In this document: positions 6,110 to 37,800 of the stretch, piece after piece | How the letters are laid out: each line of letters starts with the position of its first letter | Position numbering within the stretch: the first letter of the stretch is position 1 | Origin: Mayamaea pseudoterrestris | Taxonomy: Eukaryota | Assembly: GCA_027923505.1 (NCBI GenBank) | Contig: BROI01000037.1 | Location: 1 to 64,000 of the forward strand | DNA: 64,000 bases | Direction: 5' to 3' | Notes under the pieces: model-generated | What the model was told of the DNA's origin: nothing | The model's database searches: none | Seen by the model: the letters and a program-made list of their open reading frames with translations, nothing else | Position numbers and translations under genes: made by a program

Positions 6110-7381
6110 TCACTTTGCACCAACAATCTTGTACGCCGCATCCTCCTGGCCCGGACCTAGCTCCTTCAGCTTTGCCAGAAAGGCGCGCACACCCGACTTG
6201 GAGCGGAACCGGTGCCCCTTTGGCGACTGGTAGTAGGGATCAAGACGAGAGGGATCCGACTTGCGGGGTCGGTGCTGCACCGTCCATCCGGTCGGCCACT
6301 TGTCGGGTTTCTTTGGATCAATCAAACCGTGCAAGGGTAAATATGGCGGTTCGTCGCCAGCATCAGCGGCAGACGCAGCCAAATCCTTGCGAGGCTTCTT
6401 GGCGGCGGCCGCGGAAGCGGTTTTGGCAACAGGCGCCGCCCGCTTCTTGGACGAGGTTGTCTCCGCCTTGGCCGCTCGCTTCTTGGACGAGGCGGTGACA
6501 GCCTTTGGCGATGACTGTTTGGTACCAGTAGAGCTAGCCTTTTCCGCCTGCTTGGCAGCCGCAGCCAAATTAAAGGGTGACGATGATGAAAGAGAGCTTC
6601 CAGCCGACTTGCGAGGCGTCGCCTTGATGCGAGCAGAGCGAGCAGCCTCCTCCTTCTTGTTGCTCATCATTGTCTTGCGCGCCACTTTGCCCTTGATGCG
6701 AACCATCTGCATCTCCTCTTGTACAGCAACGTTAGCTATGCCTTCGCTCTCCGCTTGCATAGTTTCGTCGCCATTTACATCTGCCACAGGCATCTTGCGA
6801 TCGCAATCGTCGGCGGCGGGCTTGTCATTTTCTTCCTGCACTGGTTCGCTTGCTGGTTCCACCTCCATCTTGGCGTCCGCATATACCGCGGCGGCTGGCA
6901 TCTTGCGATCGTCCTCGTCATCTACCTTCAATACTTCCGCCTCGGCAAGCTTCTCGTCGCCTTTTTCAGCATCGCCCATCTTGTCTTGCTCCTTGCTTTC
7001 CGCCTCGTCATCAGTGGCTTTTGGTTGTTCAGATTCAATTGCTGAAGCAAAAGCAGAAGCAACGGGTGGTTCTACAGCATTCAGAGTGTCAACAACCGCA
7101 CCTTCCTTGTCCTCGGAGTCAGTAACAGCATTGTTATGCTCAGTCGGCGCCGTCGGCGCTTCATTAGCTTCATTACTCTCGGCTGTTTCCTTCTTGGGCG
7201 TCGTGTCAGCTCCTTCCTGGTTTTCGTTTGATGCGGCGCTTGACGCAGCCGCTGGTGGCGCTGCAGCCTCCACCAAAGCTGCAACGTCAACCGCCGCCGC
7301 AGCCGCCGCCGCAGCGTTAGTAGGCGCGCCGCTTGCGGCATTCGCCGTCGGAGATGTCAATGCCTCCAAGAGCTTTTCCAT
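6110..7381 (-). CDS. Methyl-CpG-binding domain (MBD) protein with long acidic then basic low-complexity N-terminus
   Basis: C-terminal WPTGWTVQHRPRKSDPSRLDPYYQSPKGHRFRSKSGVRAFL matches the MBD consensus (LPxGW...RKS...DxYYxSPxGxxFRSK). First in-frame ATG is at 7381 (MEKLLEAL). Confidence 0.8.
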   Translation of the reverse strand: MEKLLEALTSPTANAASGAPTNAAAAAAAAVDVAALVEAAAPPAAASSAASNENQEGADTTPKKETAESNEANEAPTAPTEHNNAVTDSEDKEGAVVDTLNAVEPPVASAFASAIESEQPKATDDEAESKEQDKMGDAEKGDEKLAEAEVLKVDDEDDRKMPAAAVYADAKMEVEPASEPVQEENDKPAADDCDRKMPVADVNGDETMQAESEGIANVAVQEEMQMVRIKGKVARKTMMSNKKEEAARSARIKATPRKSAGSSLSSSSPFNLAAAAKQAEKASSTGTKQSSPKAVTASSKKRAAKAETTSSKKRAAPVAKTASAAAAKKPRKDLAASAADAGDEPPYLPLHGLIDPKKPDKWPTGWTVQHRPRKSDPSRLDPYYQSPKGHRFRSKSGVRAFLAKLKELGPGQEDAAYKIVGAK

Positions 7382-8147: not shown

Positions 8148-11100
8148 TTACGAAGAATCACTATCTTCGCTCGATTCGTCCTCAGAGCTGTCAGAATCAT
8201 CCTTCTTTTTTATTGGCGTCGGAGAAGGCTTAGCTTCATCGTCGCTTTCGTCTTCACTGCTATCGTCCCCGCCTTCACTACCTTCTTCGTCCCCGCTATC
8301 TTCTTCTTCGTCAGATTCCTCTTCCTCGTCGTCATCCTCGTCCGAAGACTCGCGAGCTGCCGCCATGTTTTGCAGTGTCATAATCAACTCCGCTTCCCGC
8401 CCCAAAAACTGCTCCATCATGGCGTCGACATTATCAACTTCACTTGGAACAACCTCCCCAACAAGAGCAGCAACCTGGCTGCGATATGCAGCTCTTGTTG
8501 CTTCGTCGGGAATGACCAATTCCTCGCTTGCTTCCGCCTCGTTATCTGATTCGTCATCCTCTTCACTTTCCTCCGATTCTTCCTCGCTGCTTTCTTCATC
8601 AGCGCTTTCCTCGTCTCCGCTTTCCTCTTCCTCTTCTTCGCTTTCATCCTCGCTACTTTCTTCCTCTAATTTGACTTGCGTTTCCTTCTCATCATCACTG
8701 CTTTCGCCTTCGTCGCTTTCTTCGTCATCATCCTCTTCGTCAGTACTTTCGTCCTCCTCTTCGTCGCTGCTCTCACCTCCGCTGCTTTGTACTTCCTTCG
8801 GTGTATCAATTTTGCCCGTTTGATTGTTGGTAATATCCTCCGTCAATACTGGTAGACTCTCGGCTGCAACTACCGTTGGCTGCACCATTCGCTCGGGCCT
8901 CTCGTCACCAATAGACGCTTTTTCGGCGGTCTTCTCCTTCGCGAGAGGCATATCGGCAAGTGCGTCATTGTCGGAACTTTCCTCTGAGCTACCATCGTCT
9001 ACACTTGACCAGCCTACCTCATTTTCCTCGCTTGGAGCAGCTATTTCATTTATTGCATCCGGATCCTTCGATAGTAATGCCGCTTCGACGGCTGCTGCTG
9101 CCTGCATCGCTTCGACATCATACATAATAACTTCCTGTTCCTCGTCCAACATTTCTTCAGTTGATGTCAAGCTACCGTCATCGTCATCAAGTATTTCTTC
9201 CTCAGTAAACTCTTCCTCGTCGACTATTTCTTCGTTCGCTTCCTCCGCAGCTTTGATGGCGTCAATCATGGATATTCTAGCGGCAATCTCCTCCTCCAGC
9301 GTCTCAGGCGTCACTCCTTCTGTAGCAAGATCGGTTGTTGCAGAATTTGGAGATAATACAGATGCTGCTGGAGTATCGTATGCATCATTAAATATTAAAA
9401 GTTTGTCGTCTGAACTCGTCATGACGCCCAGGGCACCATTGGTTGGTATGGCAATGCCAATGTCCGGCGGCGTTAAAGGTGACATTACGGTGTCGGTGTC
9501 ATTGTCTCGCGGAACGGCCGATTCTTGGTAGCGCTGATTGTAATGACCTTCGCTTGTTGAGGTCAGAAGAAGATCGTATTCCTTCGAAGGCTGCGATGTG
9601 CCATCACCATCGTTCAATAGATTTCCAAAGTGATCAAGGTCACCGTTTGCAAACAGAATGTCTGCGGAATCATCCAAGTATGCACCGTTGTGGGCAGAAT
9701 GATCTATGTCCTTGCTTGGTTTCTCTACTTCAGCAGCAACTCTATTTTTTCTGAAATCGTAACAAACATATATGCCGATGCAAAGAGCAGCAATGACCAC
9801 AGCAACCGCGGCTGCGATGCCTATGATTGCGCCCATGCTCGGATCGCTGTCATTCGTTGATTCTGCTGCTTCCGATGACTCCGGGGGCTTGATGGGCAAT
9901 GAAGATGACACGACAGTCACCTCACTAGTCGAATTAATTTCTTTTAGTTTAGCATCAAGTTTGCCCTGGTCAATGGCAATCTGCGATAGGGCCTGGTAAC
10001 TCTGAGTGATGCTCGCTTTGTTTTGAGTGTTGCTACGCAAAAATAAGACAAACGAAGCGTAGGCAGTCTGGCATGTAGCGCCAGGCGCAACAATTGCTGG
10101 ACACACGGAGTCATCAATTTGATATATTTTCGGGGAGCCAGCTTTTAAATCACTAACCTGCAACCGCCGTCCACGGAGTCTTGATAGCATTATCGTGTTT
10201 GTTAGGTCTTCGATGAATTTAGCGTAGGCTTCATCAAGTTCTCGACGACGGCGTCCATTGGCCAAAGCGGATGCATTCAAACGACTGTCGATGGACAGGA
10301 TAAAGGAATTATATACTGGCAACTCTTCCTCGTCACCAGTTAGACTTAAACTGTTATTGTATGCCTGAATAGCCAAATCGACCTGCTCGCAAAGTCTCGC
10401 AACGTTCCTTTGCTGGTCTTTTGTCGCATCTTGACCTGGTTCAGCACCGGTGATATCGATAGCACCGTTTTGACTCAAATCATAAAATGCGTTTTGAAAT
10501 ACTGGATCCAATTCGTCAAAGGTGATCGCTTGAGCATTTAAGATCTTTGCAATGAACCTCACATATTCTGACTGCACCAAGATGCTGTCGCGGTTCACGT
10601 TAGCGACAACCAGAGCGCTGTTGCAGGCTGATCGAGCATCGTTGCTAGGGGCGTTAGTGGAATTACCGGATTCAGGTTGTTCCGCTGACGCTACCGCCGC
10701 CAGAGTTGATACACAGATGGATTTTAAATTGTCCGACTGGACAATTGTCGGCGTAGCGCCCGGTCGTGATCCAGTAATGCTTATGAAACCACTAGCGTCG
10801 GTCAAATCCTCATAATTCGTTTGCAGGGGCTGAGCGAGTACTGAAAAGGCTTTATTTATGTAGCTAAGATAGTTGATTAAAAATAATTCACGTGAGTGTT
10901 GTGTTGTTGACATCACGCGGCGCGATTCAATATCGTCCAAAAACGCAATTGAGCACTCACCGATTATCCGTCAAGCGGTTCAAAAAACGAACATATTCCA
11001 TATTGTCTAACTGCTCGTCTCGACTTATATCTGAGACAACCATGGCTATCTTACACGAATTCAACTCGGTAGCATTAATGTCTGTGGTGTTCAAAGTGGA

Positions 11101-14100
11101 GCTGTCGTTATCGCCTGGATCGTTGGAAAGTGTATATTGCATGCAACTCATGACACCATACACTTGGGAGCATATATCTTGTATATGTACCAGCTCATCT
11201 TCCGTAGGAGTCGCTCCTGGCTTGGATCCTGACACGCTGACCATCCCTGTTCCATCAGAAAGCTCTTGAAAGGGTGTCTGAATAACTTCCGGTAATCCGG
11301 CGAATGTAGTGACTGAAGAATATTTGTTCCTTGTCAACCTATTTAGAAAACGAATCCATTCAAATTGATCGAGCATATCGTCGCGGTTGGCATCGCCAAT
11401 GATAAGAGCAATCTTGCATGCAGACGTTTCCGATTCGCTCATCGGTGCTGGCTCTGGGCATGTCAAGTTACCGGCACTGGCACCAGAAGGCGGCGCGATG
11501 GTGCCATTGGAACCCACAGCGACGGCGGACCATACTGCGCCACATAGATCCTCCAAGGCCGATGCGTTTGAAGCAGGCATGGGATCAGAAGCAATTCCCC
11601 AAGCATGAATGACGGTCACGTCCCTGTATGACTCAAAAGTGGATATTAGCGAGGGATCCAGGTAACGAAAAACATTGGAAAAGGTGTTGTTGCCGAGGAT
11701 GTTGACAAAATTTGTGTACTCGTCCGTAACAAGACTCTCATCCTGGTTAACGTCAGCTTCTTTCAAAGCGCCAATGCAGCTGATTGTTGCTGGAGTCAGA
11801 TCGGCAACAAATACAAGTGGGTCTGACGTCGTTCCATTCGGTTCTGCCTCCATCGGTGGCTGAATGACGCCTGCTGTAAGTCTTGATACTGCCTTCCAAA
11901 CGTCTGTGCACAATCCTTCCAGTGACGTAGCATTCGAAGCAGGTATCGGATTAGATCCAATACCAGTGACATGTACGACACTAACATCTCGTCGCGACTC
12001 GAATATTGATTGCAAAGACTCGTCAAGATAGCGAAAGGCTTTCGAAAAAGAATCTTGACCCAAAACATTGACAAAGTTTGTAAACTCGTCAGTCGCTAGA
12101 CTCTCATCCCGGTTGGCGTCAACTTGGTTCATGGCGTCGACGCAAACTTGCGTTGCAGGCGTTAGATCAGAGACGGCAATAGGCGCCTCGGTCGGAACGA
12201 CAACTGGCAAGGCGTTTAATATTTCGGTGCACAGTTGTTCCAGCGCTGTCGCATTGGTCGCAGGCATTGGATCCAAGAATATGCCAGCTGCCGGAATGAC
12301 CGTGACCTCTCGATGCGACTCAAAGACAGCAATGAGCGCTGGATCCAAGTAGCGAAAGGCTTGCGGTGACGTGTTATCAGTCAATATATTCACCAAAGTA
12401 GTGTACTCATCCGACGCTATTTGCTCGTCCAGATTAGCATCGGCTTGCTTCATGGCGGTGACACAGGTTTGCGTGCCTGATGTCAAATCCGCAAACGCCA
12501 CTGGTGGTGCCGTTGGTGCCGCGGTCGGTGGTAAAACGGCGCCCGCTCCAGAGACTTCCGTCGGTACAGCGATTGTTCCATTCGAGACTTTCACAATAGC
12601 CGTCCAAACGTCAGTGCACAAATCGTCCAAATAGGCAAAATCTTGCGCCAACACTTGGTTGCTAGCTTCGGCAACGTTGACACCAGTCACAGGCATGGCG
12701 CTAAAGACCCGTCGAGCTTCGAATATCTCAATCAGCGAGTCATCCAAGAATCGAAAGGCTAGCGGAAAGGTTTGCTGGCCAAGAATGTTGCAAAAGGCGG
12801 TATACTCGTCAGTTGCCAAGTTGTCATCCTTGTTGACATCGGACGTGCCAATGGCATTGAGGCAAACTTGCGTGGAAGCTGACAACTCTGCAACTGGAAT
12901 GGGCGCTGCGGATGGTGACAAGGACGGCGCAAACGTGACTGTAATAGTGGGTAATAAACTGGGCGTGGTGGAAGGTACAACAGATGGCGACTCTGATAAT
13001 GTAGTCACTGGTAATGTCGGTAAACCAGTGCCTGATGTAGTATCAGTCGTTGTAGGTGTGATTGATGGAGCCTGCGAATCTGGAGCGAGCGTGCTGGCAA
13101 ACAGTGATGGTGCCTTTGACGGCATTGCCGAGGCCGTCGGAGCAACCGTAAATCCACTAGTCTCTGCACTTGTCGGTGCCAGACTCGTCGTCGTTGCAGA
13201 AGCACTGCTAGTGCTTGTTGCAGTCGCCACTGCCGTTGGCAGCATGGTCGTCAACGGCGGTTCCGTTGCGACGGGAGCTTCGGTTGCTACATCCGATGCC
13301 GCCACCGTGACTTCTAGATTCGTCATGCTGCAAAAGTTGCGCTGCCAAACGTCGTCGTCGTTAACAAGGCTGACTGCCGTGGCAATGCCAGCAAAGTCGA
13401 TGAAAACCGTCTGCACACTCTCCGGCAGTTCCGCAAACGCAAAGCCAGAAGCAGCGTCGTTCGTCAAATCGTTCACCAAGAAAACATACTCGTCTTCGTC
13501 CAACACGTTATTGCCGCTGGAGTCTGCTGTAGCGGTACTTGCCACGCAGGATGGCGCATCCACTACAACGCTCCAAACGTTGTAAATGCTGGCATAGAGC
13601 GAGTCGCACAGGGCAAAGGTGGCGTCGTAGTTGGCATCGGCAGCAGCTACGGCAGCGTCATTTGGACCAACGATCAATATGCCACCACTCGTGGAATCTG
13701 CATTGGCGGTATAAATTTCCGTCACGCTTGGTGGAACGTTGGCAAAATCGTTGAAAATGTCAATTCGTTGGTGGCTCAGCTCCAGGACGGCTGCGGCATA
13801 TTCGGTGCGGTCCAAGCTCAAGTCTGCATTGGCGTCGGCTCGTTGCAGCACGCCAAAGCACTTTGTAAAGTAATTGATGGATTGCGCTGAAACGACAACG
13901 TTTGCAAAAGAAGCGAATAGAAGAATGAGCAGCAAGAGCAGTCGGTGCTGCTGCTGTCGTTTGCCGAGTTGAGCAAAGCAATTTAGAACTCTTAGCAATC
14001 TTAGACACGAGTCATTCCATATTGACTTCATTATCCCTTCCAATCGTTGCTGCATCACAACAAAACAAGTGGATTGTCGGTGTTCAAGTAGCCTTGGTCG

Positions 14101-14166
14101 CTTCATATTGATGGGTCGTGCTGCTGATTGCTGGGTCTGGTCACTGCAAGCAGTTTTCGTTGCCAT
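8148..14166 (-). CDS. Giant type I membrane protein A (~1950 aa): nine Cys-flanked EF-hand-like repeats, RXL motif, TM helix, acidic cytosolic tail
   Basis: ORFs 10957..14196 and 8148..10940 join in frame via a GT-AG intron 10960-10864 (…LTDNR|YINKAF…). Hydrophobic leader LLLLLILLFASFANVVVSA; repeats such as C-x7-DANRDDMLDQFEWIRFLNRL; RGRRLQ; TM AIIGIAAAVAVVIAALCIGIYVCY; E/D/S-rich tail. The start codon is uncertain (14166, 14106 or later). Confidence 0.8.
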
Positions 14167-14697
14167 GGTAGCGCTGTACTGTCCTACTAGATACACACTG
14201 TATTAGGTGCTTGCTGCAGTGAGTTAGTAGCTTGATGAACGAGAATCTGGCCAAATAACAATCCGCATGGCCAACTTTTGCCGCCTGAACGGACTCGGCC
14301 CTCCATCGTCGTCGCCCAATTCGCTCTTGATCGTGATCCGACGAAACGAGAGAGTACACTTTGAGCGATTGTATTAGTGAATTAACAAAAAACATCTCAC
14401 ATCTTACTATCGATCAAACAGTACGGAATGGCTGAACTGCTTCTGAGCTTTCGAGGCACGATCAATCCTGCATGACTGATTCCGTCGTACCGGTATTCAG
14501 CGGCGCATGACAACAACTCGCTCCAATCCCATGCATACCGCATAGCTTTCCTTGCAGCCTATAGTATCGTGCCAAACATGAGGTTTACTATTGCAGGGAT
14601 GGTGCAGCAGATGAATCACTTGTTGGCGGAAAACCCCTGCATCTGACACACTTTATTGCCAGCAACAATTTTCATTTATACAGTAAGCATAATTTTA

Positions 14698-17600
14698 CTA
14701 GTCATCATATTCACCCGAGTATGTTGTACGAGACCGGCTGCCATCACCACTCACATACGAGCCCGACTGGTAGCTACCTTCCTCACCGGAGCGGTAGCTT
14801 TGTGATCCTTCGTCTCCACTCACGTAGGAACCTTCGTCGCCAGAGCGATATGACCGCGAGCCTTCTCCGCTAACGTAGGAGCCTTCTTCCTCTCCCGATC
14901 GGTATGATCGCGAGCCTTCTCCGCTAACGTAGGAGCCTTCTTCCTCTCCCGAGCGGTAGGACCGTGATCCTTCACCACTGACAAAGGAGCCTTCGTCTTC
15001 GCCCGAACGGTAGGACCGTGATCCTTCACCACTAACGTAGGAGCCTTCCTCTCCCGATCGGTACGAGCGAGAACCTTCACCACTTACGTAGGACCCTTCG
15101 TCACCTGATCGACGGGAACGAGAACCATCACCACTAATGTATGATCCTTCGTCACCTGATCGACGAGAACGAGAAGCATCACCGCTAATGTAGGAACCTT
15201 CATCCCCTGAACGATGGGAGCGCGAGCCTTCACCGCTAATGTAGGATCCTTCATCATTTGAACGACGGGAGCGAGAGCCTTCACCGCTAATGTAGGATCC
15301 CTCATCCTCGCCGGATCTATAGGAACGCGATCCTTCGCCACTGACATAGGATCCTCCGTCCCCTGATCGATATGACTGACTGCCGTTCCCACTTCGATAG
15401 GATCCAGTTCTGCTGCCGTCTCCACTTCGATACGAGCCTGTTCGACTTGCATCTCCACTCTGATACGATCCAGTTCGACTCCCTTGGCCACTTATGTATG
15501 AACGAGTACCATCGCCGCTAACAAATGAACCTTGATCATCTCCACTGTAATGAGAGCCAGTCCGGCTATCGGCGCCACTAACGTAAGATTTTGATCCTTC
15601 GCCGCTAACATACGATCTTTGATCATCTCCGGAGCGAATGGAGCCTGTTTGATGGCTTCCAGTCCGACTGCCAGAGTATTGCGACCCACTGACGACACTT
15701 CCACTTGCTGCAGTGCCATCCTCCTTACTGTAATACGACTGCGATCCTGTGCCTGATCGCTCGTCACTGTAGTAGGATCGAGACCCGCTGCGTTCACTGC
15801 GAGAATATGAGCCGCTTCGGCTGTCGGATCGACTCTGATCGTCCGAGTAGGACCCGCTCTTGCTGTAGCTGCCTTCGCCATCACCGTAACCATTATCAAA
15901 TCCGGCATTCTGGGCACCAAAGCCGAAATTATTACCTCCGGCAGCGAATCCACCACCATCATCAAAAGCACCAACTTGAACGCCAATCGTACTGGCTGCA
16001 GCAATGGCAGCGGATCCTTCGGTACCACCTGGTCCAAAAGGTATATTTTCGCGCTGAGGCATTGCTTTACTCTTGTGCACCGCCTTGCGAGCACGTTGCG
16101 TCGCCGAACGTTCCTCCATTGTTTGCAGTGTGTGAATCAACTCCGCTTCTCTACCGGAGAATTGGTCCATCATTGCGTCAATGTTGTCCACCTCATCTGG
16201 CACTACTTTTTTCACAAGCGCTTCTACCTGTCCTCTATATTGTGCCCGCCTTCGTAACTCTTCCGACGAGTAGCTGACAAATGAGTCTCCAGCAGAGTCG
16301 TCATCTCGTGTCCGGTCTGGGTCGTACAGCACAGGTTTTGGCTCTGTTGACGAATTATCCGAGCCATCCGAGTGACTTAAACCTTCACTTTCTTGCAGCG
16401 ATGGTCGGCTAGGTTCTGAACCATCTCCGTCGGTCAAATCGTTGTCAATTTTTGTAGCAGCGGCCATGACACCGTCCCAATTTCCTTGGTCGACCATGGC
16501 GTCCAAATGACGCATATTGTCGGGTATTTCTGCAGTCTCAAAGTTTGGTTCTTTTCTAAATGCAACATCGTCTTCGCCATCATCATAGGACTCGTCGTCT
16601 TCCGAGCCAGAATCTGAATCGGACCCCGAACGATCACCTGACTGTCTACTACGTGAGGCCTTTGAATATTGGTCGCCGGTGGTGGAGCCATCTCCTCGTT
16701 TGCCCCACGCACTTTCGAATACATTATCTCCGTTCGCACCAAAAATATCATCCGTCGTATTCCCCATTCCGGCGACTGGGTCATCAAATCCATAGTCTGC
16801 AAAGTCATTTGCCGCCGTATCATTGAAAGCGTCAACTCCCAATTCACCGATAGCGCCGTCAAAAGTTCCAGCTGCAGTCTTCTTCTTTCCCAGACCAAAC
16901 TTGAATTTGTTACCCTTACCGCCACCTACAGCGTCCTCGTCGTCGTGTCCGCTTTGCGAAGGATCCTGATCCATGACACTAAAGGCGTTGCTCTCATCGT
17001 CGTCGTCTCCATATTTAAATTCATTGTCGGCAGCTTCTTTCGGAGTGGGTGCCGTCCCAAACTCGTAGTCATCATCGTCGTCATCACCATAAGCGGCTTT
17101 TTCAATATCGGCCGTCTTGTCGGCATCTTCGTCCTTGCGGTTTCGCTTGGATAAACATGGTATTTCCGGCAGCCATATCATGACGTCTTCGCAACTCATG
17201 TTGTTGCGACGAGCGTAGTAAATTCCTCCTCCAACGAGACAGATGAGCAAGAGGACAACAATGATAGACGCTGCAATTGCACCAGTATTAGTTTTTTCAC
17301 CCGACTCCTCGGATTCGCTCTCATCATCGTCCGCGGTGACACCAGGGTCAGCTGGAGGCTGAATCGGCAAGTTGGAATTGACGACGACTAGCGCCGTCGC
17401 TGGGTATGCTTCGAGTATATCCGCTTGCAGATCTTTCGGAATATTCTTCATGGTCTGCTGCATGAGTTGATCCGAAATGACCTTTGTATTATCTACATTG
17501 GACATGGAAACGTTAAAGCTCGAATATATTTTTGTGCAGGTGCCCGTGGTTTGTGTTCCATTAGCAAAAGGAGGACAAGGAGCGTAGTCGACCAGCTGAT

Positions 17601-19608
17601 AGTTTTCAGTCGAACCATCGGCCAAATACAAGGCCGGTGCTGCGTCGACAGCATCCTGTAACAGACGACTCTCACCAGTTGTTTGCAAAAATAAACGAAA
17701 CTGGTCGTTCACAAAGGTTGCGTAACCCTCATCAAGCGCCTTTCGATTCTGCCCCGTCCGTAGCGAAATAGCCGTAATGGCACCATTTGGATCCGAAACA
17801 ATCCAGGCATTGTAAATTGTCGCGTTGACGGCGTTCTCTAGTGGCGGTGAAGGCACCGTCTGATCATCGCTCGTTGGATTTAAGGACTCGTTCACGGCGG
17901 CAACGGTCGAATTGCAAACGTCGGCCAAATGTTCCTCTTGATCAGCTGTCGGTGCATCGCCTGGTTTGCTTCCAGCAATGTCAATTGCGTCTTCACCAGC
18001 CGCCAAGTCGTCAAAGTTGTTTTGCAGCGTTTCATCCAACTCGGAGTAGTCCGTGGCAGAAATGGCGCGAGCACTTGCGTAGGTGAGGAACCGCAGGTAT
18101 TCCGTTTCACTCAATGCGTCATCTCGATCCAAGTCGGAAACGGCGAGGTATTGGAGGCATCGCGTGTATTCTAGCTCAATACTTGTCGATGGTGAAGATG
18201 CTTCTGCTGATGGTGCACTAGTAGTAACACCGCTTGCCGTTGGAACAGTCGCATCCGTTGTTGGCGCAGCGCCTGGACTAGTAGTCGTTGCTCCTCCACC
18301 ACTACTTCCTCCAGCCTCCTGCAAGGCAGCATCCGTCGCGTCACAAACTTCCTGCAAGTGCGCCAGTTCATCATCCGTCGGCGTCGAACCAGGCGCCGAT
18401 CCGTCAATCAAAATGCCTTGCGCGGAAACGTTTGAAAGCGTTTCAAAACTCTCCTGCAGCGCCACTGGCAGTGTATCGTAGGTTTCCGAATAGTAGGTGT
18501 TGCTGGTGAGTCGATTCAAAAAGCGCACATATTCATTGGACTCCAAGACGCCGTTGCGCGTCAAGTCGGAAAAGGCCAAGCTGGTGGTGCATTCCGTAAA
18601 CGTAAAGGACGTTTCGCTAGTGGTGGTAGTAGTTGTTGCCGTCGGTGCGTTTGTCGAAGCAAACAAGGTGGGACTTGGAGCTGCCGCTGATGGACTCGAT
18701 GCGGGTGCTGGCGTTGTACCACTTTTTGCTGCACTCGTGTAGATTGCCACGGCGGCTTGATCACAAAGATCCGCCAGGAATAGTTCTTGTTCGTCCGTTG
18801 GCGTTTCACTCGGCTTGCTGCCCGTCACGTCAATTGTAGTCGACGACGCAAAATCAACAAACACATTTTGCACGGGAGTTGCCAATTCGCTATAGTCGGT
18901 GACGCTTGCCAAGTCGCCGTTGGCCAAAAAGTTGACGAACCGTACGTACTCGTAGTCTTGACTCAGCGACGCGTCGCGGTCGGCGTCGCCGACGATCAAG
19001 CCCACCGTACATTGCTGCGAGGTGAAGGAAACGTTGAGTGCTTGCAGCAAGGCTTGATAGAGTGATCGACAGGCGGTTGCTGTGGCTGTGGAGTCGCTGC
19101 TCAAGTCAATGCCGTCGATATACGTATCAAAGGTTGTTTCCAATGATGAGCCTGACGTGACAGAAGTGACTGCGCCGTTTGACAATGTTTCCACCGCTTG
19201 AGCGTACTCCGTGGCATCCAAACTGCCGTCCGAGTCTGCATCTGCTGATTGCAACGCGCTCGAGCAAGTGTCAAAGGGTAGTGCGCTTATGGTGGTTGAT
19301 TGTAATGCAAGGAGAAAGAGGAGCGACAGCAGCAAGGTGGATTGCAGTGGCATGAATCGTTGCTGCAGCGAAACTCGTCTTCGTCGTTGTCGTTGCTTAA
19401 CATTACTATTTCCACATGTCTGATTTTGCTTGAATGGAGCTTTTGGAGTAACACATGTTCGACGGAATTGGTGCGTAGGTTCGTGCCGACGACGGGTCCT
19501 CGTCGTTTGAAATTTCTCCTCGTGATGGCTGATGCTAGTTTTCGTTTCTGCTGCCGTTTTCAATGATTGCATCACTATTCCACAGAGCCTCCGCCGTCGT
19601 TCCTGCAT
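14698..19608 (-). CDS. Giant type I membrane protein B (paralogue of A): four EF-hand-like repeats, RXL, TM, cytosolic conserved motif and S/G/Y/R/E tandem repeats
   Basis: Single 1636-aa ORF. Signal-like MPLQSTLLLSLLFLLALQSTTISA (ATG 19353 is an alternative start); DADSDGSLDATE-type loops; ESRLLQ; TM AIAASIIVVLLLICLVGGGIYY; VPDEVDNIDAMMDQFSGREAELIHTLQTM shared with protein A. Confidence 0.85.
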   Translation of the reverse strand: MQERRRRLCGIVMQSLKTAAETKTSISHHEEKFQTTRTRRRHEPTHQFRRTCVTPKAPFKQNQTCGNSNVKQRQRRRRVSLQQRFMPLQSTLLLSLLFLLALQSTTISALPFDTCSSALQSADADSDGSLDATEYAQAVETLSNGAVTSVTSGSSLETTFDTYIDGIDLSSDSTATATACRSLYQALLQALNVSFTSQQCTVGLIVGDADRDASLSQDYEYVRFVNFLANGDLASVTDYSELATPVQNVFVDFASSTTIDVTGSKPSETPTDEQELFLADLCDQAAVAIYTSAAKSGTTPAPASSPSAAAPSPTLFASTNAPTATTTTTTSETSFTFTECTTSLAFSDLTRNGVLESNEYVRFLNRLTSNTYYSETYDTLPVALQESFETLSNVSAQGILIDGSAPGSTPTDDELAHLQEVCDATDAALQEAGGSSGGGATTTSPGAAPTTDATVPTASGVTTSAPSAEASSPSTSIELEYTRCLQYLAVSDLDRDDALSETEYLRFLTYASARAISATDYSELDETLQNNFDDLAAGEDAIDIAGSKPGDAPTADQEEHLADVCNSTVAAVNESLNPTSDDQTVPSPPLENAVNATIYNAWIVSDPNGAITAISLRTGQNRKALDEGYATFVNDQFRLFLQTTGESRLLQDAVDAAPALYLADGSTENYQLVDYAPCPPFANGTQTTGTCTKIYSSFNVSMSNVDNTKVISDQLMQQTMKNIPKDLQADILEAYPATALVVVNSNLPIQPPADPGVTADDDESESEESGEKTNTGAIAASIIVVLLLICLVGGGIYYARRNNMSCEDVMIWLPEIPCLSKRNRKDEDADKTADIEKAAYGDDDDDDYEFGTAPTPKEAADNEFKYGDDDDESNAFSVMDQDPSQSGHDDEDAVGGGKGNKFKFGLGKKKTAAGTFDGAIGELGVDAFNDTAANDFADYGFDDPVAGMGNTTDDIFGANGDNVFESAWGKRGDGSTTGDQYSKASRSRQSGDRSGSDSDSGSEDDESYDDGEDDVAFRKEPNFETAEIPDNMRHLDAMVDQGNWDGVMAAATKIDNDLTDGDGSEPSRPSLQESEGLSHSDGSDNSSTEPKPVLYDPDRTRDDDSAGDSFVSYSSEELRRRAQYRGQVEALVKKVVPDEVDNIDAMMDQFSGREAELIHTLQTMEERSATQRARKAVHKSKAMPQRENIPFGPGGTEGSAAIAAASTIGVQVGAFDDGGGFAAGGNNFGFGAQNAGFDNGYGDGEGSYSKSGSYSDDQSRSDSRSGSYSRSERSGSRSYYSDERSGTGSQSYYSKEDGTAASGSVVSGSQYSGSRTGSHQTGSIRSGDDQRSYVSGEGSKSYVSGADSRTGSHYSGDDQGSFVSGDGTRSYISGQGSRTGSYQSGDASRTGSYRSGDGSRTGSYRSGNGSQSYRSGDGGSYVSGEGSRSYRSGEDEGSYISGEGSRSRRSNDEGSYISGEGSRSHRSGDEGSYISGDASRSRRSGDEGSYISGDGSRSRRSGDEGSYVSGEGSRSYRSGEEGSYVSGEGSRSYRSGEDEGSFVSGEGSRSYRSGEEEGSYVSGEGSRSYRSGEEEGSYVSGEGSRSYRSGDEGSYVSGDEGSQSYRSGEEGSYQSGSYVSGDGSRSRTTYSGEYDD
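14740..15370 (-). repeat. Coding tandem repeat, about 11 copies of a 51-54 bp unit (EGSY[IV]SG[ED]GSRSxRSG[DE])
   Basis: Directly visible, e.g. gagccttctccgctaacgtaggagccttcttcctctccc recurs at a 54-bp spacing near 14858 and 14912. Confidence 0.9.
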
Positions 19609-24324: not shown

Positions 24325-26114
24325 TCATCTTTCAACAAGCTCAGGTACTTCGATCCGCGGAAAAATGGGAGTAGGTTTCGCGATGGGAGTGCCTGGCTTG
24401 ATTCGATACGCATCATCCAAATGAGCAAATGTTCGCTCAGTTAATGGGACAGTGAGAGCATCCAGAATCTTGTTAGCCGAAGTAGGAATCAATGGCTGAT
24501 AAAGAATCGCCGAGTAGCGAAGGACTTCCATGATGACGTATAAAACCGTAGCCATTCGCTCGGGATCTTCCTTTCGCAGCACCCACGGCGCCATGGTGTC
24601 AATGTACTTGTTGGCATCCCATATATGGGTCACTAACGCTTCAACGTACTTTTGAATCGACTGCACGGCAATGGCTGCACCAGTGGTTTCTCTCAACGAT
24701 CGCGTTGATGCCAACAAGGCTTCATCCTCGGGAGTGAGCGCCTGCGGTTCCGGAACACACTTGTCGCAATTCTTAAACACCAGCGTCAAAGTTCGCTGAC
24801 ACAGATTTCCCAGCTCATTCGCCAAGTTGGTGTTGCACTTTTGTATCATGGCAAGGTCTGAGTAATCTCCATCGTTCCCAAAGTTGACTTCGGACATGAG
24901 AAAAAATCTCGTTTGGTCGACTCCGTAACGCTCCACCAAATCCAGAGGGTCAATAACATTTCCAATCGATTTCGAAATCTTTTGACCATCCTTTGTCCAC
25001 CATCCATGCGCAAACAACCGCCTTGGCACCGGCAAGCCTGCCGCCATGAGTATAGCTGGCCAGTAGACTGCGTGAAAGCGAAGAATGTCCTTGCCGACAA
25101 CGTGCAAAACGTTGGGCCAGTACTTGTCGTAGTCGGATCCTTCATTCGTGTCGGGGTAGCTAAGGGCGGAAATGTAGTTGGCGAGTGCATCGATCCAAAC
25201 ATACATGACGTGGTCATCGTCGCCAGGAACTGAAACTCCCCATTTGAACGACGTTCGACTAATGGACAAGTCTCGCAAGCCGCCCTTGACAAAGGACAAG
25301 ACTTCGTTGCGACGACCTTCTGGTGCGATAAAGTCGGGATTTTCATCATAATACTGCAGTAGCTTGTCTTGGTACTCGCTCAAGCGAAAGAAATACGACT
25401 TTTCCTTGGCAACCCACTCCACGTCGGCTCCGGTTGGTGCCTTGCCGTCCACTAGCTCCGATTCCGTGTAAAAGCATTCGTCGCGAATCGAGTACCAGCC
25501 TTCGTAGTTGCCCATGTATATTTGGTCCTTTTGCTTCAAGACGTTCCAAAGATGCTGCGTCACCAAAGAAACACGTGAGTATTTAAAAAGCCCACAATTG
25601 ACATATCATGCATTGTCAATCGTTGGCTCCTGCAACAACATACCTGTACGGCTTTCTTATGATCAGGTTGCGTCGTTCGAATAAACTTGTCATGAGAAAT
25701 ATTCAGCAACTCGAGCAAGTCGGAAAAGTTGACGGAAACTTGATCGACAAAGTCTTGTGGATCGACGCCAGCCTTGGCGGCCGACTGCTCCACCTTTTGT
25801 CCATGTTCATCCGTGCCGGACAGAAAGAACACTTGACGGCCCGAGAGACGCATGTAGCGGGCGAGCACGTCGCATGCTGTTGACGTATAGGCGTGTCCAA
25901 TGTGCGGCTTGTCGTTCACGTAGTAAATAGGAGTGGTGATTTGAATGGGACTCGTGCCGTCGTCAAAGGATGTGGCTGGTGTTCCAATCGTTGTGGAGAA
26001 CAGATGAAATGGTTGGCGAATGGACGTGAGCGCCCTTGTAACGAAACCATGCACAACATTACTTCTGCTTGCTATGGAAAGAGATAGCAGCATGATGCTA
26101 CAAAGTCTCCACAT
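24325..26114 (-). CDS. metG: Methionyl-tRNA synthetase, bacterial-type, organellar
   Basis: ITTPIYYVNDKPHIGHAY (HIGH), GTDEHGQK, YVWIDAL, GKDILRFHAVYWPA, KISKS (KMSKS). Intron 25643-25555. N-terminal signal plus VHG-F motif. Confidence 0.95.
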
Positions 26115-29135: not shown

Positions 29136-30440
29136 ATGCAACCGAAACCAACCATTACAAGATCGGAATCCTATGCGTATCCAAGCAATAACCGCAAAAC
29201 CATCATGAGCAAGCTGCAGTACGTTTGCCGACACCACTCGAGCGTCGTGTTGATTGTTTGTTGCATGATCGTCGTTTGCCTCTTTTGCGCCGCGACGCTG
29301 CTGGAAATGGATCAAAACACGAGTGGCGGCAGTCGCTTTTACATGCGCCGGCGATACAGTAGCAACGATAGTAGCGCCATGCTGCATTGGGGCGGCGCCG
29401 TACGCCCCGGCTACTTTTTCGCGTCGGACGCAATCAAGAGCGCCAACGAGTTTCACTTTAGCGCCGTGACGGATCTGGATGAGTTGAGCAAGCTAAAACC
29501 CGAGTCAAGCAAGCCGGAGTTCTATTCCACATTTTTGGGCGGCATTCTCACCAAGACGTCCAAAAACAATCGACCATGGTACACCATGGAGCTGCACGAC
29601 TCTGATACGCGCCAACTAGTGACCAAGCACAACGAGGCTGGTCGCGGCGCCGAGTTTAGCGAATTGGTCATTTTCAACGGCCGCTTGCTGACCTTTGACG
29701 ACCGCACGGGCGACGTGTTTGAAATACTAAACACACCCGACGGCAACGACTCGTTTGTGGTGCCTCGATTCGTCATTACCGAAGGCAACGGCGAAACCGA
29801 CAAGGGCATGAAGTGGGAGTGGGCCACTGTCAAAGATGATGAATTGATCATGGGCAGCATGGGCAAGGAATATACGCATCAGGATGGTACTGTCAAGAAT
29901 CGAAACAACTTGTGGGTTGGCATTTTGAACGCGCGGGGAGAACTGCGACGGGAGGACTGGACGTCAAAGTATCAAGTGGTACGTCAGGCGCTGGGAGCGG
30001 CCTCGCCTGGCTACATGATTATCGAGGCGGCCAATTGGTCGCCAATGCTGCGCAAGTGGGTCTTTTTGCCGCGACGAATATCATCGGAAGCGTACGATGA
30101 AAACAAGGATGAAATGAGAGGTGGTCACCAACTTGTGTTACTGGACGAGGACTTTACCAACCCAAAAGTGATTGATTTGAAAATGACGAGTCTGGATCCG
30201 CTCAAGGGCTTTTCCACCTTTGCGTTTGTGCCAAACTCGGACGACAAGCACGCTCTGGCCATTCGATCCGTTGAGGAGAATTGCGTGGACTTTACCGCAA
30301 GGTGTCAGCAGCGCACGTACTTTCTTGTCATTGACGTGACAACGGGCGAGCAGCTATCCGACGAGCTCACGTACAAGGACAAGGTCAAGTTTGAAGGCGT
30401 CGAATTTGTAAACATGCACGTCAAGCCGCCAAAGCTATAG
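29136..30440 (+). CDS. CANT1: Calcium-activated nucleotidase / apyrase (CANT1 family), type II membrane protein
   Basis: TM VVLIVCCMIVVCLFCAA; VTDLD, GRGAEFSELVIFNGRLLTFDDRTG, GMKWEWATVKD..LIMGSMGKEY, WVFLPRR, KGFSTFAFVP, KFEGVEF. Confidence 0.92.
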   Translation: MQPKPTITRSESYAYPSNNRKTIMSKLQYVCRHHSSVVLIVCCMIVVCLFCAATLLEMDQNTSGGSRFYMRRRYSSNDSSAMLHWGGAVRPGYFFASDAIKSANEFHFSAVTDLDELSKLKPESSKPEFYSTFLGGILTKTSKNNRPWYTMELHDSDTRQLVTKHNEAGRGAEFSELVIFNGRLLTFDDRTGDVFEILNTPDGNDSFVVPRFVITEGNGETDKGMKWEWATVKDDELIMGSMGKEYTHQDGTVKNRNNLWVGILNARGELRREDWTSKYQVVRQALGAASPGYMIIEAANWSPMLRKWVFLPRRISSEAYDENKDEMRGGHQLVLLDEDFTNPKVIDLKMTSLDPLKGFSTFAFVPNSDDKHALAIRSVEENCVDFTARCQQRTYFLVIDVTTGEQLSDELTYKDKVKFEGVEFVNMHVKPPKL

Positions 30441-34829: not shown

Positions 34830-37800
34830 ATGATGCAAACGTCCGCGCACAGCGAGAGCGACGACCGCAGCATCAGCAGTGGAACAAGCGGCGATAAGGC
34901 TAGTGGGCGCGGCGACATAAGCACTTCCAATGCTTCAAGCAAGAGCGAGCAGGAGATGCTGGAGGAGAAGGAGGCCATGTTCAAAAACGAGTCGGCGCAA
35001 GTCACGAAACTCAAACGATTCGTGCTGCTGATCATGATCCTTGCCGGCATTGCCATTTCTGCCGTTATCTTTGTCGTCAGCTCAAAAGGAAACGTCGTAG
35101 CATTTGAGAGTGACTATAATGGTAGTGCAGAAAAACTACTAGCAACTTTTCAGGAGATTGCAGAGCAGCGCCTCGGTGCCATCAGTTCCTTGAGTGTTGC
35201 CTTGACGGCCCATGCATGTACGTACACCATGCAGCGCGACGCGTCCGCGCATAAAAACCCTCAGCGAGTCTCAATGTCTTACACAAACTTTCTAAACTCT
35301 CATTTATTTCTACAAATGCAGTGGATCGAGACAGTAACTGGCCACATATTACCCTTTCATACTTCCAAGAAAGAGCGTTGATGACTAGGTTCGTCGTTCA
35401 TTGTGGTCATTTTGACAAGCGTTCGTCCGCAACGCGACCGCTCACAATGTTTTCACCCTTACCGTTAAAACAGGTACTTATCTGGTACCCTTCTTGTGAC
35501 CGTTAACCCTTTGGTTGCTGAAGACGAGCGCGATGCTTGGGAAAACTATTCCTTTGCCAGCGAGGCTGCGGATTGGCACAAGGACGGACACGCTTACCAG
35601 ATGCAGCTCGGCTATGAAAACTACGGCATCGCCTTTAACACCAGTGACATCGTGCAGCGAACCACTCTTGATCCCTCGCTCAACATTTCAACTGGAATTG
35701 CCAACCACATCTTCAACGTGAACGACAGCGGCGAAGCCTTATTCGATCGTTCCAAAGGCCCGTATCTTCCAACATGGCAGACCTCGCCTGTTTTTCTCCG
35801 AACACTCGTCAACGAGAACCTTTTACAAGACCCTGATGGAGCAAAGTACGCCAACTCGACCATTTCGACGTCGACTGTTGTGGTGGGCGGCTTTGAATAT
35901 CCGAGAGATGAAACAGAATTCAAGATATACAGTATTCTCATCAGCATCGCCAAGAAACGGAAGTTCACATACAAGGGAAGCCCCTTGACACGCGTGTATA
36001 TTCCAGTTTTCGATTCCTTTGACGACGCTACCAAAAAACCGGTGGCTGTGATGACGGCGCTTATTCGCTGGGTTAGCTTCTTCGACAACGTCTTGCCCAA
36101 GCAGGTGAGAGGCATTGATATGGTGTTGGAAAGCACGTGTTCGGACATTGACGGTGACATATACACGTTTAGCATTACCGGGCACGAACCCGAACCGATT
36201 GGAGCTGGCGACCGCCATGATGTCAAGTTCGCTCAATACGCTCGAATGGCAACCATGGCGGACGTGGAGTCGGTGGACGACGGCAGTCTTCATGGTATCA
36301 AGCTGAATCAAGAGGAGTGTGTCTTCCAAATGACCTCATATCCCAACCAAGTCATGTTAGATGACTATCAGACCAACCTGCCTGCATTGATTACTTTTGC
36401 CGTCGCCATGGTGTTTGCCTTTACCTTTGCAATGTTTTTGGTTTATGACAAATTAGTTGAGCGTCGACAGAATCTGGTCCTTCAGCGCGCCGAGCAAACA
36501 ACAGCCATTGTGCAGTCACTCTTCCCCAAGAGCGTCGCTGATAAGTTAATCCAAGAGACTAGGGACATGGATCCGCTTGCATCAAAGAACCAACGTCTCA
36601 ACAAATTCTTGAGTGGCGACGAACAAGCAGCTAAGACAATTGCAGACTTATTCCCCGAGTGCACTGTTCTCTTTGCCGATATTTCTGGTAAGTCATTCAA
36701 TGAGCCTAAAGTGGTGCCGTATAGCCATGCCGCTCACCAACGCCTCCTTCTGCAGGATTCACGGCTTGGTCGTCGACGCGCGATCCATCGCAAGTCTTTC
36801 AATTGCTTGAGGCCATTTACAATTCGTTTGACGATATTGCCAAAAGTCGCAAAGTCTTTAAGGTTGAAACAATCGGCGATTGCTATGGTAAGTATCAACG
36901 TTGCTGACAGGATCATCACCATAACGACATGCATGAAAGCTTACACGATTTGTCTCTTACTCCTATGCAGTTGCGGTGACTGGACTTCCCGACCCACAGG
37001 CAAACCATGCTGTCATCATGGCACGCTTTGCTAGCGAATGCATGATAAAGATCAAGGAGGTAACTCAACGCCTCGAGACCACCCTCGGCCCGGACACTGC
37101 GGAGCTTTGCATGCGCGTCGGTATGCACTCTGGACCTGTGACGGCCGGCGTATTGCGCGGCGATAAAAGTCGGTTCCAGGTAAGAACATCTATGTATTAC
37201 GCAGCAACAGGAAATCGACACTTGCTCACACTGCTCTCTTCTTAAACAGCTTTTTGGCGACACTGTCAATACTGCCTCACGCATGGAATCGTAAGTATCT
37301 TTTTTTGTTTATCCGTCGGCGCATGCTTGCCATCAACTTACAACGAGGATCCTCACATTGCATCACTCCTTCATTTTTCTACAGCACTGGAACTCGCGAG
37401 CGAATCCAGGTTTCGCAGGAGACAGCCAACAAGTTGACACTCGCCGGCAAGGGGCACTGGCTTTCGCCACGCGAGGATACCGTCAATGCCAAAGGCAAGG
37501 GGGTGCTTCAAACATATTGGCTTCGCACGCAGTCCAAGCAAAAGGCTGGCAGCGTTGCCTCCAGTGGAGGCACGCACAGCAGTGACAATGATATTGTCTT
37601 GGACTCTGATATTCCTGCCAATGCAGAGGCCAATGAGGTTCTCAAGCGCGACCGCAAGGTGGACTGGATGACCGAGCTTCTTGGCGAATACCTCAAGCAG
37701 ATTCATGGGCATCGGATTGCCACGCCCATGACCAAGCCTGCCGACTTTCAAATGCCCGAAGACCTCATTGGCATTAATGAGGTTGTCGAAGCAATTTTGT

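Follow-up and report, generated by a model that had tools for sequence, protein, structure and literature searches.

Analysis of a 64,000-nucleotide (nt) window from the raphid pennate diatom Mayamaea pseudoterrestris revealed two genes positioned head to tail on the minus strand, gene A (MPSEU_001084200) and gene B (MPSEU_001084100). Each is predicted to encode a type-I membrane protein with a tandem array of EF-hand-pair modules, a SEA-like stalk carrying a basic R-x-L loop, one transmembrane (TM) helix, and a conserved tail. The window is the whole stretch of DNA that was analyzed, and positions refer to it. This structural reading, drawn from sequence comparisons and structural models, is regarded as very probable. 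A functional reading, according to which the proteins are Ca2+-loaded, proteolytically processed receptors of the surface, the secretory pathway, or the matrix whose tail is coupled to cytosolic machinery, is advanced tentatively and with a probability a little short of even. When structure and mechanism are blended into one explanation, this explanation is about as likely as not.

The first-pass annotation of this DNA had described two head-to-tail paralogues with a common architecture, and this description was borne out by the open reading frames (ORFs), the loop sequences that it quoted, the module mapping, the TM helices, and the tails. The deduced A protein consists, in this order, of a signal-like hydrophobic segment, four modules, a membrane-adjacent domain, a TM helix, and an 840-amino-acid (aa) tail. 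Proteins A and B are 30% identical across 727 residues. A module comprises about 80 residues from Cys to Cys. The modules were located by a motif scan and by their Cys positions, which confirmed the nine plus four copies counted before, at the same positions. The two genes and their modules are as follows.

14698..19608, minus strand: gene A (MPSEU_001084200), uninterrupted longest ORF, 1636 aa from the first ATG
17914..19266, minus strand: gene A module array, four modules with Thr/Ser/Pro/Ala-rich linkers
19069-19266, minus strand: module A1, aa 115-180
18763-19011, minus strand: module A2, aa 200-282
18343-18591, minus strand: module A3, aa 340-422
17914-18159, minus strand: module A4, aa 484-565
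8148..14166, minus strand: gene B (MPSEU_001084100), two exons, annotated as "hypothetical protein"
10389..13860, minus strand: gene B module array, nine modules
13606-13860, minus strand: module B1, aa 113-197
13330-13548, minus strand: module B2, aa 217-289
12616-12864, minus strand: module B3, aa 445-527
12229-12465, minus strand: module B4, aa 578-656
11908-12144, minus strand: module B5, aa 685-763
11542-11778, minus strand: module B6, aa 807-885
11170-11418, minus strand: module B7, aa 927-1009
10713-11055 (intron included), minus strand: module B8, aa 1048-1129
10389-10625, minus strand: module B9, aa 1159-1237

Pairwise identity among the 13 modules of the window ranges from 17 to 62%. 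Modules B3 to B6 form a young subgroup (39-62% identity), A2 to A4 are similar to B7 to B9 (32-47%), and A1 is similar to B1 (35%). Because of this identity pattern, gene B looks like a gene for an A-like protein with an inserted four-module block. A hidden Markov model (HMM) of the module gave no match at E ≤ 10 in 400 shuffled ectodomains. This control ruled out that the repeats are an effect of chance or low complexity.

The fold of the module was analyzed by profile and structure searches. A profile built from 12 of the 13 modules (B8 was excluded, as it spans an intron) was compared with the sequences of the Protein Data Bank (PDB). The search revealed 82 matches at E ≤ 10, and 52 of the 60 shown have titles of EF-hand or Ca-binding proteins. 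The top match, 7pjd_A (E 1.6e-5), was aligned on the D-x-D-x-D loops. An AlphaFold2 model of module A3, a single-module check that the first-pass annotation had suggested, was computed from the 12-module alignment and predicted with high confidence (predicted local distance difference test score [pLDDT], 93.7; predicted template modeling score [pTM], 0.85). The model comprises four helices (residues 2-12, 22-32, 47-56, and 77-90) and two short paired strands (residues 19-20 and 63-65). Comparison of this model with 48,161 chains by VIA-align placed EF-hand lobes at the top of the matches, with 34 of the top 50 titled as EF-hand, Z-scores from 6.7 to 4.6, and 60 to 75 aligned residues. The matched EF-hand lobes, from centrin, troponin C, parvalbumin, calmodulin-like proteins, and S100, are covered over most of their own length. 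Because the PDB profile search, the confident AlphaFold model, and the fold searches agree, the module is assigned as a complete EF-hand pair, with a predicted canonical hand 1 and a degenerate hand 2.

These results, together with Pfam matches in related proteins, support the EF-hand-like character ascribed to the module in the first-pass annotation. Three relatives, P0165 (29.7 bits), P0032 (37.3 bits), and P0012 (38.2 bits), pass the gathering score of the Pfam family EF-hand_1 (25.4 bits). The earlier view that each module has one loop bracketed by two Cys has to be refined. The Cys pair encloses the whole four-helix domain and not the loop alone; one Cys is located in helix 1 and the other in helix 4. 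Helix 1 and helix 4 adjoin in EF-hand lobes; therefore, a disulfide between the two Cys of each module is plausible from the model. A new single-loop fold was rejected for the module, which corresponds to a complete EF-hand pair of a well-known superfamily. Precomputed Pfam labels found on some relatives (PF23564 and PF27023) were not reproduced in the Pfam scans performed here.

Inspection of the loop sequences revealed D at position 1, D, N, or S at position 3, D or N at position 5, and E at position 12 in 10 of the 13 loops. The other three are A2, whose loop has 13 residues, A3, which has Thr at position 3, and B9, which has Asn at position 1. The strict EF-hand pattern PS00018 of PROSITE was matched by five of the 13 loops, compared with an expectation of 0.006 to 0.0075 per shuffled ectodomain. 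Conservation was determined in a set of 605 near-full-length modules from 173 proteins. In this set, 95% of the modules have D at position 1, 90% have N, D, or S at position 3, 96% have D or N at position 5, 99% have L, M, I, or V at position 8, and 97% have E at position 12, and both Cys are present in 100%. Because the liganding positions belong to the best-conserved columns of the module, this pattern argues for selection on metal binding at the loop. The loop of hand 2 is about 20 residues long, has the consensus I-D-I-x-G-S-K-P-G-x-T-P-T, and lacks the ligand pattern. Each module would thus most probably contain one canonical 12-residue putative Ca2+ loop and a second loop that is elongated and non-liganding, an assignment that shares the high probability given to the structural reading as a whole.

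Several observations weigh against the assignment of the modules as Ca2+-binding EF-hand pairs. A Foldseek search of the PDB with the module model gave no match at E ≤ 1e-3, and EF-hand proteins were listed only at E > 1. All VIA-align Z-scores are below 8, a range that, according to the warning of the tool, can reflect common arrangements. A search of the module against Pfam, likewise suggested by the first-pass annotation, identified relatives above the EF-hand_1 gathering score, whereas the window proteins remained below it (14.3 bits for A versus 25.4). Eight of the 13 loops of the window fail the strict PS00018 pattern, position 6 is frequently occupied by E, S, or L in place of G, the loop of A2 has a one-residue insertion, and the loop of B9 begins with N. 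The 605 modules of the conservation set were picked by an HMM that already encodes the columns in question.

The remaining parts of the ectodomain and the TM helices were located as follows.

19279..19353, minus strand: gene A N-terminal hydrophobic segment, aa ~86-110, putative signal peptide by hydrophobicity
17344..17835, minus strand: gene A membrane-adjacent domain, aa 592-755, with an R-L-L-Q loop and two invariant Cys
17221..17283, minus strand: gene A TM helix, aa ~776-796
9873..10337, minus strand: gene B membrane-adjacent domain, containing a multibasic loop, SRLRGRRLQ
9765..9827, minus strand: gene B TM helix, aa ~1425-1445

In 121 of 155 sequences, the TM helix is positioned about 200 residues beyond the last module. 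In 103 of 119 relatives, the 15 residues that follow the TM helix have a higher net charge than the 15 that precede it. Seven N-x-S/T sequons are present in A and 17 in B, and the linkers between the modules are rich in Thr, Ser, and Pro. Based on the invariant Cys pairs, the sequons, the Thr/Ser/Pro-rich linkers, the single TM helix, and the charge bias, the module arrays are predicted to be exposed on the exoplasmic side of a glycoprotein with type-I topology. The lumenal or extracellular location of the modules proposed earlier is supported by the position of the TM helix, the charge bias, and the invariant Cys. The start of the proteins agrees less well with this topology, since both NCBI models put 30 to 75 residues ahead of the hydrophobic segment; this segment may therefore act as a signal anchor and not as a signal peptide that is cleaved off.

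A model of the membrane-adjacent domain was generated from a 24-sequence alignment. AlphaFold predicted a domain of the order beta-alpha-beta-beta-alpha-beta with a pLDDT of 92.6, which dips to 70-75 in the loop between alpha1 and beta2. This loop contains the RLLQ of protein A and the RRLQ of protein B, the two motifs that had been noticed in the first-pass annotation. The Arg of R-x-L is invariant among the 24 diverse sequences, and R-x-L is present in 93 of 100 relatives compared with 42% of shuffled loops, usually in the form LR[RG]R[KR]L. Searches with the model revealed ferredoxin-like folds, including unrelated enzyme domains (best Z-score, 7.7). Among the matches were SEA domains (2e7v, Z 6.1; 7sa9, Z 6.0; 1ivz, Z 5.9), the SEA regions of Gpr126 and TMPRSS6 (Z 6.8), and MAD12 of PCDH15 (Z 5.7). 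Membership in the SEA family by sequence was ruled out: Pfam SEA gave no hit at E ≤ 1 in A or B, and the autoproteolysis motif G[ST][VI][VI][VI] was absent from both window proteins and from all 109 family segments scanned. We read the domain, as modeled, as a ferredoxin- or SEA-like stalk with a loop, multibasic or of the R-x-L type, that would be accessible to proteases. Both conserved Cys of the domain are C-terminal to the R-x-L loop; therefore, the two halves of a cut domain would be held together by the beta-sheet alone. Three results count against this view of the domain: R-x-L is frequent by chance in Arg/Leu-rich loops, as the shuffled loops demonstrate; the site of protein A, SRLLQ, is not multibasic; and Foldseek found no match for the model in the PDB at E ≤ 1e-3.

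The single TM helix is followed in both proteins by the acidic cytosolic region reported before, in the sense that the tail of B (537 aa) contains 33% D+E and the tail of A (840 aa) is rich in Ser, Gly, and Asp. Three elements were identified in the tails.

16051..16290, minus strand: gene A conserved tail motif, aa 1107-1186
14816..15376, minus strand: gene A tandem repeat at the 3' end, 51 bp x 10.8 copies, encoding 17-aa units of the GSYVSGEGSRSYRSGEE type
8298..8537, minus strand: gene B conserved tail motif, followed by an acidic run

The motif common to A and B has the consensus YRxQVExLVxxVVPDExDNxDAMMxQFxGREAELIxTLQxM, and in A it continues with QRARKAVHKSK. It occurs in 74 segments of the relatives that were collected, and a dedicated search revealed it in 111 proteins. 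Among 13 A-type proteins, FGLGKKK, ANDFADYGFDDP, NWDGVMAAA, and the GREAEL motif vary hardly or not at all. A further 68 proteins with the tail motif were analyzed; 37 of them have modules, and the rest are mostly fragments or have a reduced ectodomain. A profile search of the tail motif against the PDB gave a single unrelated match (E 0.54). Pfam searches gave sub-threshold matches only, most frequently the GH2 domain of GIPC1-3 (5 of 14 sequences; best E, 0.028); at 15 bits compared with a cut-off of 27, this match is too weak to use and serves as a lead only. The tail-motif strings did not occur in a full-text literature search.

Five proteins (P0201, P0209, P0210, P0218, and P0223), one of them from Thalassiosira minuscula, combine the tail motif with a short ectodomain that has no module or one degenerate module. 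They contain an additional repeated cytosolic motif, LDxAIxxGDWxAVxxxAAxL, which is related to LDAMVDQGNWDGVMAAA of protein A. In the relative from T. minuscula, a centric diatom, the single N-terminal module lacks acidic ligands, as judged by eye, and the RRRR-x-L site and the tail are retained.

Searching with the module profile revealed 563 cluster representatives at E ≤ 1e-3, of which 242 were found at E ≤ 1e-10 and 137 at E ≤ 1e-30. The members are mostly 1000 to 2000 aa long and have 3 to 11 modules. A word-index protein search with the module alignment found only six proteins. A search for related loci with protein A alone found no relative; an alignment query then succeeded. Organism names are attached to only a handful of the sequences, and all members so named are from diatoms (Mayamaea, Nitzschia inconspicua, Cylindrotheca fusiformis, C. 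closterium, Epithemia, Bacillariaceae metagenome-assembled genomes, and T. minuscula), in line with the lineage-specific family envisaged in the first-pass annotation. That annotation had also been unable to match the proteins to a named family. This holds for the architecture, which appears to be undescribed in the literature searched, and does not hold for the building block, which belongs to the known EF-hand superfamily. No description of the family was found in full-text literature searches, although bioRxiv supplements could still list members, and full-text searches for diatom and EF-hand in combination with gliding, adhesion, or frustule found nothing about it.

A tree of the membrane-adjacent domain was calculated from 140 sequences with FastTree and midpoint rooted. 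Protein A belongs to a clade of 40 sequences (support, 0.978), 28 of which have four modules and 30 of which have the basic QRARKAVHKSK continuation. Protein B belongs to a clade of 44 sequences (support, 0.841) that typically have 5 to 10 modules and acidic tails. Further clades contain Nitzschia and Cylindrotheca proteins. Judged from this tree, A and B are members of two old, distinct subfamilies. On a 31-kb metagenome contig (L033:6044-17691), an A-type gene with four modules is followed by a B-type gene with 10 modules on the same strand, both intronless; the order is that of the window, head to tail with A before B and one gene of each clade. The tandem arrangement was found in one of two informative A-type loci, a result that counts against the overall explanation; at the other (L001), the roughly 9 kb of downstream sequence contain no module.

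Taken as a mechanism, the ectodomain would be a string of independently folded EF-hand-pair domains on Thr/Ser/Pro-rich linkers, the Ca2+ sites of which would normally be filled in the secretory lumen and outside the cell. Ca2+ is present at 0.1 to 10 mM in fresh water, sea water, and the secretory lumen, and classical EF-hands bind it at micromolar concentrations. Because of this difference, the sites would usually be full, and a structural or ligand-bridging function of Ca2+ would therefore be favored over sensing. As a structural cofactor, Ca2+ would stiffen the beads-on-a-string ectodomain or enable the binding of a partner, for example the wall, mucilage, or an acidic polymer. The R-x-L loop would be cleaved by a protease of the secretory pathway, and the ectodomain would then be retained non-covalently on its stub or be shed. 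The conserved tail would connect the protein to cytosolic trafficking or cytoskeletal machinery, and A-type and B-type proteins might act together.

Four other explanations were weighed against this mechanism. The roles in Ca2+ sensing (as opposed to constitutive Ca2+ loading), in the silica vesicle, and in gliding that the first-pass annotation had considered gained no support from the analysis. One of them would make the modules EF-hand relics without Ca2+ binding that act as disulfide-stabilized structural spacers. It draws on the scarcity of Gly at position 6, the eight loops that fail the strict pattern, the insertion in A2, and the loss of acidic ligands from the single module of centric relatives; since positions 1, 3, 5, and 12 are, after the two Cys, among the most conserved of the 605 modules, we regard it as very unlikely. 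Another explanation, by analogy with known proteins of the silica deposition vesicle (SDV), would place A and B in the silicalemma as precursors that are cleaved at R-x-L, so that the Ca2+-binding ectodomain ends in biosilica or the organic casing, as for Sin1, SAP1, and SAP3. The type-I architecture and the conserved R-x-L loop near the membrane would suit such a precursor, and the presence of the tail and the juxtamembrane parts in a centric diatom would fit a pan-diatom process. In the sections of the published accounts that were available, Sin1, SAP1, and SAP3 are described as type-I SDV proteins with cleaved anchors and RXL as a mark of biosilica proteins (PMC5647440; bioRxiv 10.1101/2021.09.18.460806). 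The available part of the report on the silica proteome of three species does not mention an EF-hand protein (bioRxiv 10.1101/2021.09.18.460806), and the tail motif is more than 300 residues away from the TM helix here, whereas in the SAPs, which are small and Ser rich, the conserved domain directly follows the TM helix, as far as the available part of their description goes (PMC5647440). The SDV precursor is therefore considered unlikely.

An explanation of lower probability would regard the proteins, by analogy, as lumenal Ca2+ sensors or cargo receptors (STIM-like or Cab45/MCFD2-like) whose tail recruits coat, adaptor, or motor proteins. STIM proteins are type-I proteins with a canonical and a hidden EF-hand in the lumen, Cab45 and MCFD2 take part in Ca2+-dependent cargo sorting, and the range of lumenal Ca2+ permits changes in EF-hand occupancy. 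The combination of one canonical and one non-liganding hand in each module and the conservation of the tail, which is at least as high as that of the ectodomain, agree with such a role. Pfam revealed neither a SAM domain nor another STIM feature in A or B, however, and 3 to 11 modules with mucin-like linkers and many sequons are more like a surface stalk; we thus give this explanation little weight. An equally small weight is given to a raphe adhesion-motility linker, whose ectodomain would bind adhesive strands in a Ca2+-dependent manner and whose tail would engage actomyosin. All named multi-module members (Mayamaea, Nitzschia inconspicua, Cylindrotheca fusiformis, and Epithemia) are raphid pennates, the tail is long and conserved, and its sub-threshold resemblance to GIPC GH2 provides a weak lead, as GIPC GH2 binds myosin VI. 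The apparent enrichment in raphid species comes from a handful of named sequences, however; the GH2 match is far below threshold, and the PDB search with the tail gave the one unrelated match at E 0.54. The presence of the tail and the juxtamembrane parts in T. minuscula, which is centric and does not glide, argues against a function confined to raphid gliding. A more elaborate version would have the proteins form the transmembrane links, long sought, of the adhesion-motility complex of raphid diatoms, with a Ca2+-stiffened array that grips secreted adhesive strands, a tail that rides on raphe actomyosin, a nicked SEA-like domain that serves as a mechanical break-point and leaves the ectodomain in the trail at the raphe end, and A and B as a working pair; this scenario is speculative and very improbable. 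The Ca2+-loaded, processed receptor described above is thus the explanation that we retain.

The gene models were compared with the NCBI annotation and with public sequencing runs. The gene A product is a 100% match to NCBI model P0004, which is annotated as "hypothetical protein MPSEU_001084200" and has 1581 aa compared with 1636 aa for the ORF from the first ATG. At the 5' end of gene A (19440-19608), P0004 opens with MS and then enters the ORF at PFKQ, bypassing the first ATG. A small 5' intron, and hence a different start, may be present in gene A and is a candidate only. The structure of gene B is as follows.

10961..14166, minus strand: gene B exon 1, starting at the ATG used by the NCBI model and ending at the splice donor
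10864..10960, minus strand: gene B intron, 97 nt, GT..AG, within module B8
8148..10863, minus strand: gene B exon 2, running through the stop codon

The spliced model of gene B is identical letter for letter to NCBI protein P0008 (1973 aa). Contigs from three of four public runs join 10863 to 10961, which indicates that gene B is transcribed and spliced as modeled; among the public sequencing runs found, none is on record as RNA. Gene A is likewise covered by contigs from the same public runs. The three MPSEU identifiers were absent from the supplements of a paper on copper in M. pseudoterrestris.

A second copy of gene B (P0155, MPSEU_000967000) is located on a 440-kb contig of the same assembly, with 90% identity across 1960 residues. 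Both a recent paralogue and a divergent haplotype are conceivable, and this copy may be the source of many of the differences in the run contigs that resemble single-nucleotide polymorphisms. Two positions in gene A, 17089 and 18378, are points at which contigs of runs X2 and X3 diverge from the window, with unmatched loose ends of up to 255 letters; a divergent allele, another copy, or an isoform is possible. An in-frame 3-nt insertion (CGT) at 18716, present in contigs of two runs, lies in the Thr/Ser/Pro-rich linker between A2 and A3 and suggests a length polymorphism of this linker. Just 3' of the gene A stop codon, one X1 contig omits 210 nt (14481-14692), with the ends CC..TA; an indel polymorphism and an artifact of assembly are both possible causes. 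The neighboring ORFs (6110-7381, 24325-25515, 29136-30440, 37323-38840, 43558-45624, 53893-54657, and 60444-61988) contain domains of MBD, methionyl-tRNA synthetase, apyrase, cyclic-nucleotide phosphodiesterase, 5'-3' exonuclease/PolA, HECT ligase, and eIF2B. In the domain scan of the ORFs of the window, these neighbors are housekeeping genes with no evident connection to genes A and B.

In textbooks, EF-hands figure as cytosolic Ca2+ switches. Long tandem arrays of disulfide-closed EF-hand pairs on the outer side of a single-pass membrane protein are undescribed in the literature searched; the building blocks (EF-hand pair and ferredoxin- or SEA-like fold) are known, and the architecture and the family appear to be undescribed. 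Because the family is large (the 563 representatives), keeps its architecture over the whole length of the protein, and has a tail that is conserved although unassigned, a central role in diatom surface biology is likely. Adhesion, gliding, and wall morphogenesis of diatoms need membrane links from the extracellular space to the cytoskeleton, few of which are known, and the family provides genetically testable candidates. It is also a clean model for the adaptation of an EF-hand lobe to the oxidizing, high-Ca2+ exoplasmic space.

Comparison with known systems revealed both likenesses and differences. As described in the available parts of the literature, SAP1-3 and silicanin-1 resemble the diatom proteins reported here in having a signal peptide, a lumenal N-terminal part, R-x-L, one TM helix, a conserved cytosolic element, and a reported cleavage of the anchor (PMC5647440; bioRxiv 10.1101/2021.09.18.460806). 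They differ, in a comparison made by description only, in that the SAPs are short and Ser rich, have a TM-adjacent conserved domain, and come from centric species; EF-hand modules are unmentioned in the part of the source available (PMC5647440). SEA and other membrane-adjacent domains (MUC16, TMPRSS, Gpr126, and protocadherin-15 MAD12) likewise form a beta-alpha-beta-beta-alpha-beta sandwich just before the TM helix of mucin-like type-I proteins, with a protease-type site in an exposed loop. This likeness reaches Z-scores of only 5.7 to 6.8, and the ferredoxin-like domains of PheRS and MscS match equally well; moreover, the candidate cut site of the diatom domain is located between alpha1 and beta2, whereas that of SEA is located between beta2 and beta3. 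Frustulins are secreted, Cys-containing, Ca2+-associated glycoproteins of the diatom wall with acidic Cys-rich (ACR) domains and are not known to have a TM helix or an EF-hand.

STIM1 and STIM2 are type-I sensors of the endoplasmic reticulum in which a canonical EF-hand is packed on a hidden non-binding one and which have a long cytosolic helical tail. Their likeness to the diatom proteins concerns a possible way of working, and no sequence relationship was found; Pfam found neither a SAM domain (E ≤ 1) nor STIM-type coiled coils in A and B, and the diatom proteins have many modules instead of one. The EC domain of SPARC/BM-40 is an extracellular, disulfide-stabilized EF-hand pair, one hand of which has a variant loop, and module A2 also has a one-residue loop insertion. 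A weak match to SPARC_Ca_bdg was found in relative P0012 only (E 0.15; 12.8 bits compared with a cut-off of 22) and not in the window proteins. SPARC differs in that it is an animal protein with a single pair and a follistatin-like partner domain and is not membrane anchored. In the EF-hand-pair domains (lobes of calmodulin, centrin, and troponin C, S100, and parvalbumin; EF-hand_1 and EF-hand_7), the lobe likewise consists of four helices and two loops that are connected by a short beta bridge. Their 12-residue loop also carries the ligands at positions 1, 3, 5, and 12, and position 8 is hydrophobic. In contrast to these domains, the diatom modules are predicted to be exoplasmic and not cytosolic, have invariant Cys in helices 1 and 4 and a second loop of about 20 residues with GSKPGxTPT, and are arranged in 3 to 11 tandem copies on a type-I membrane protein.

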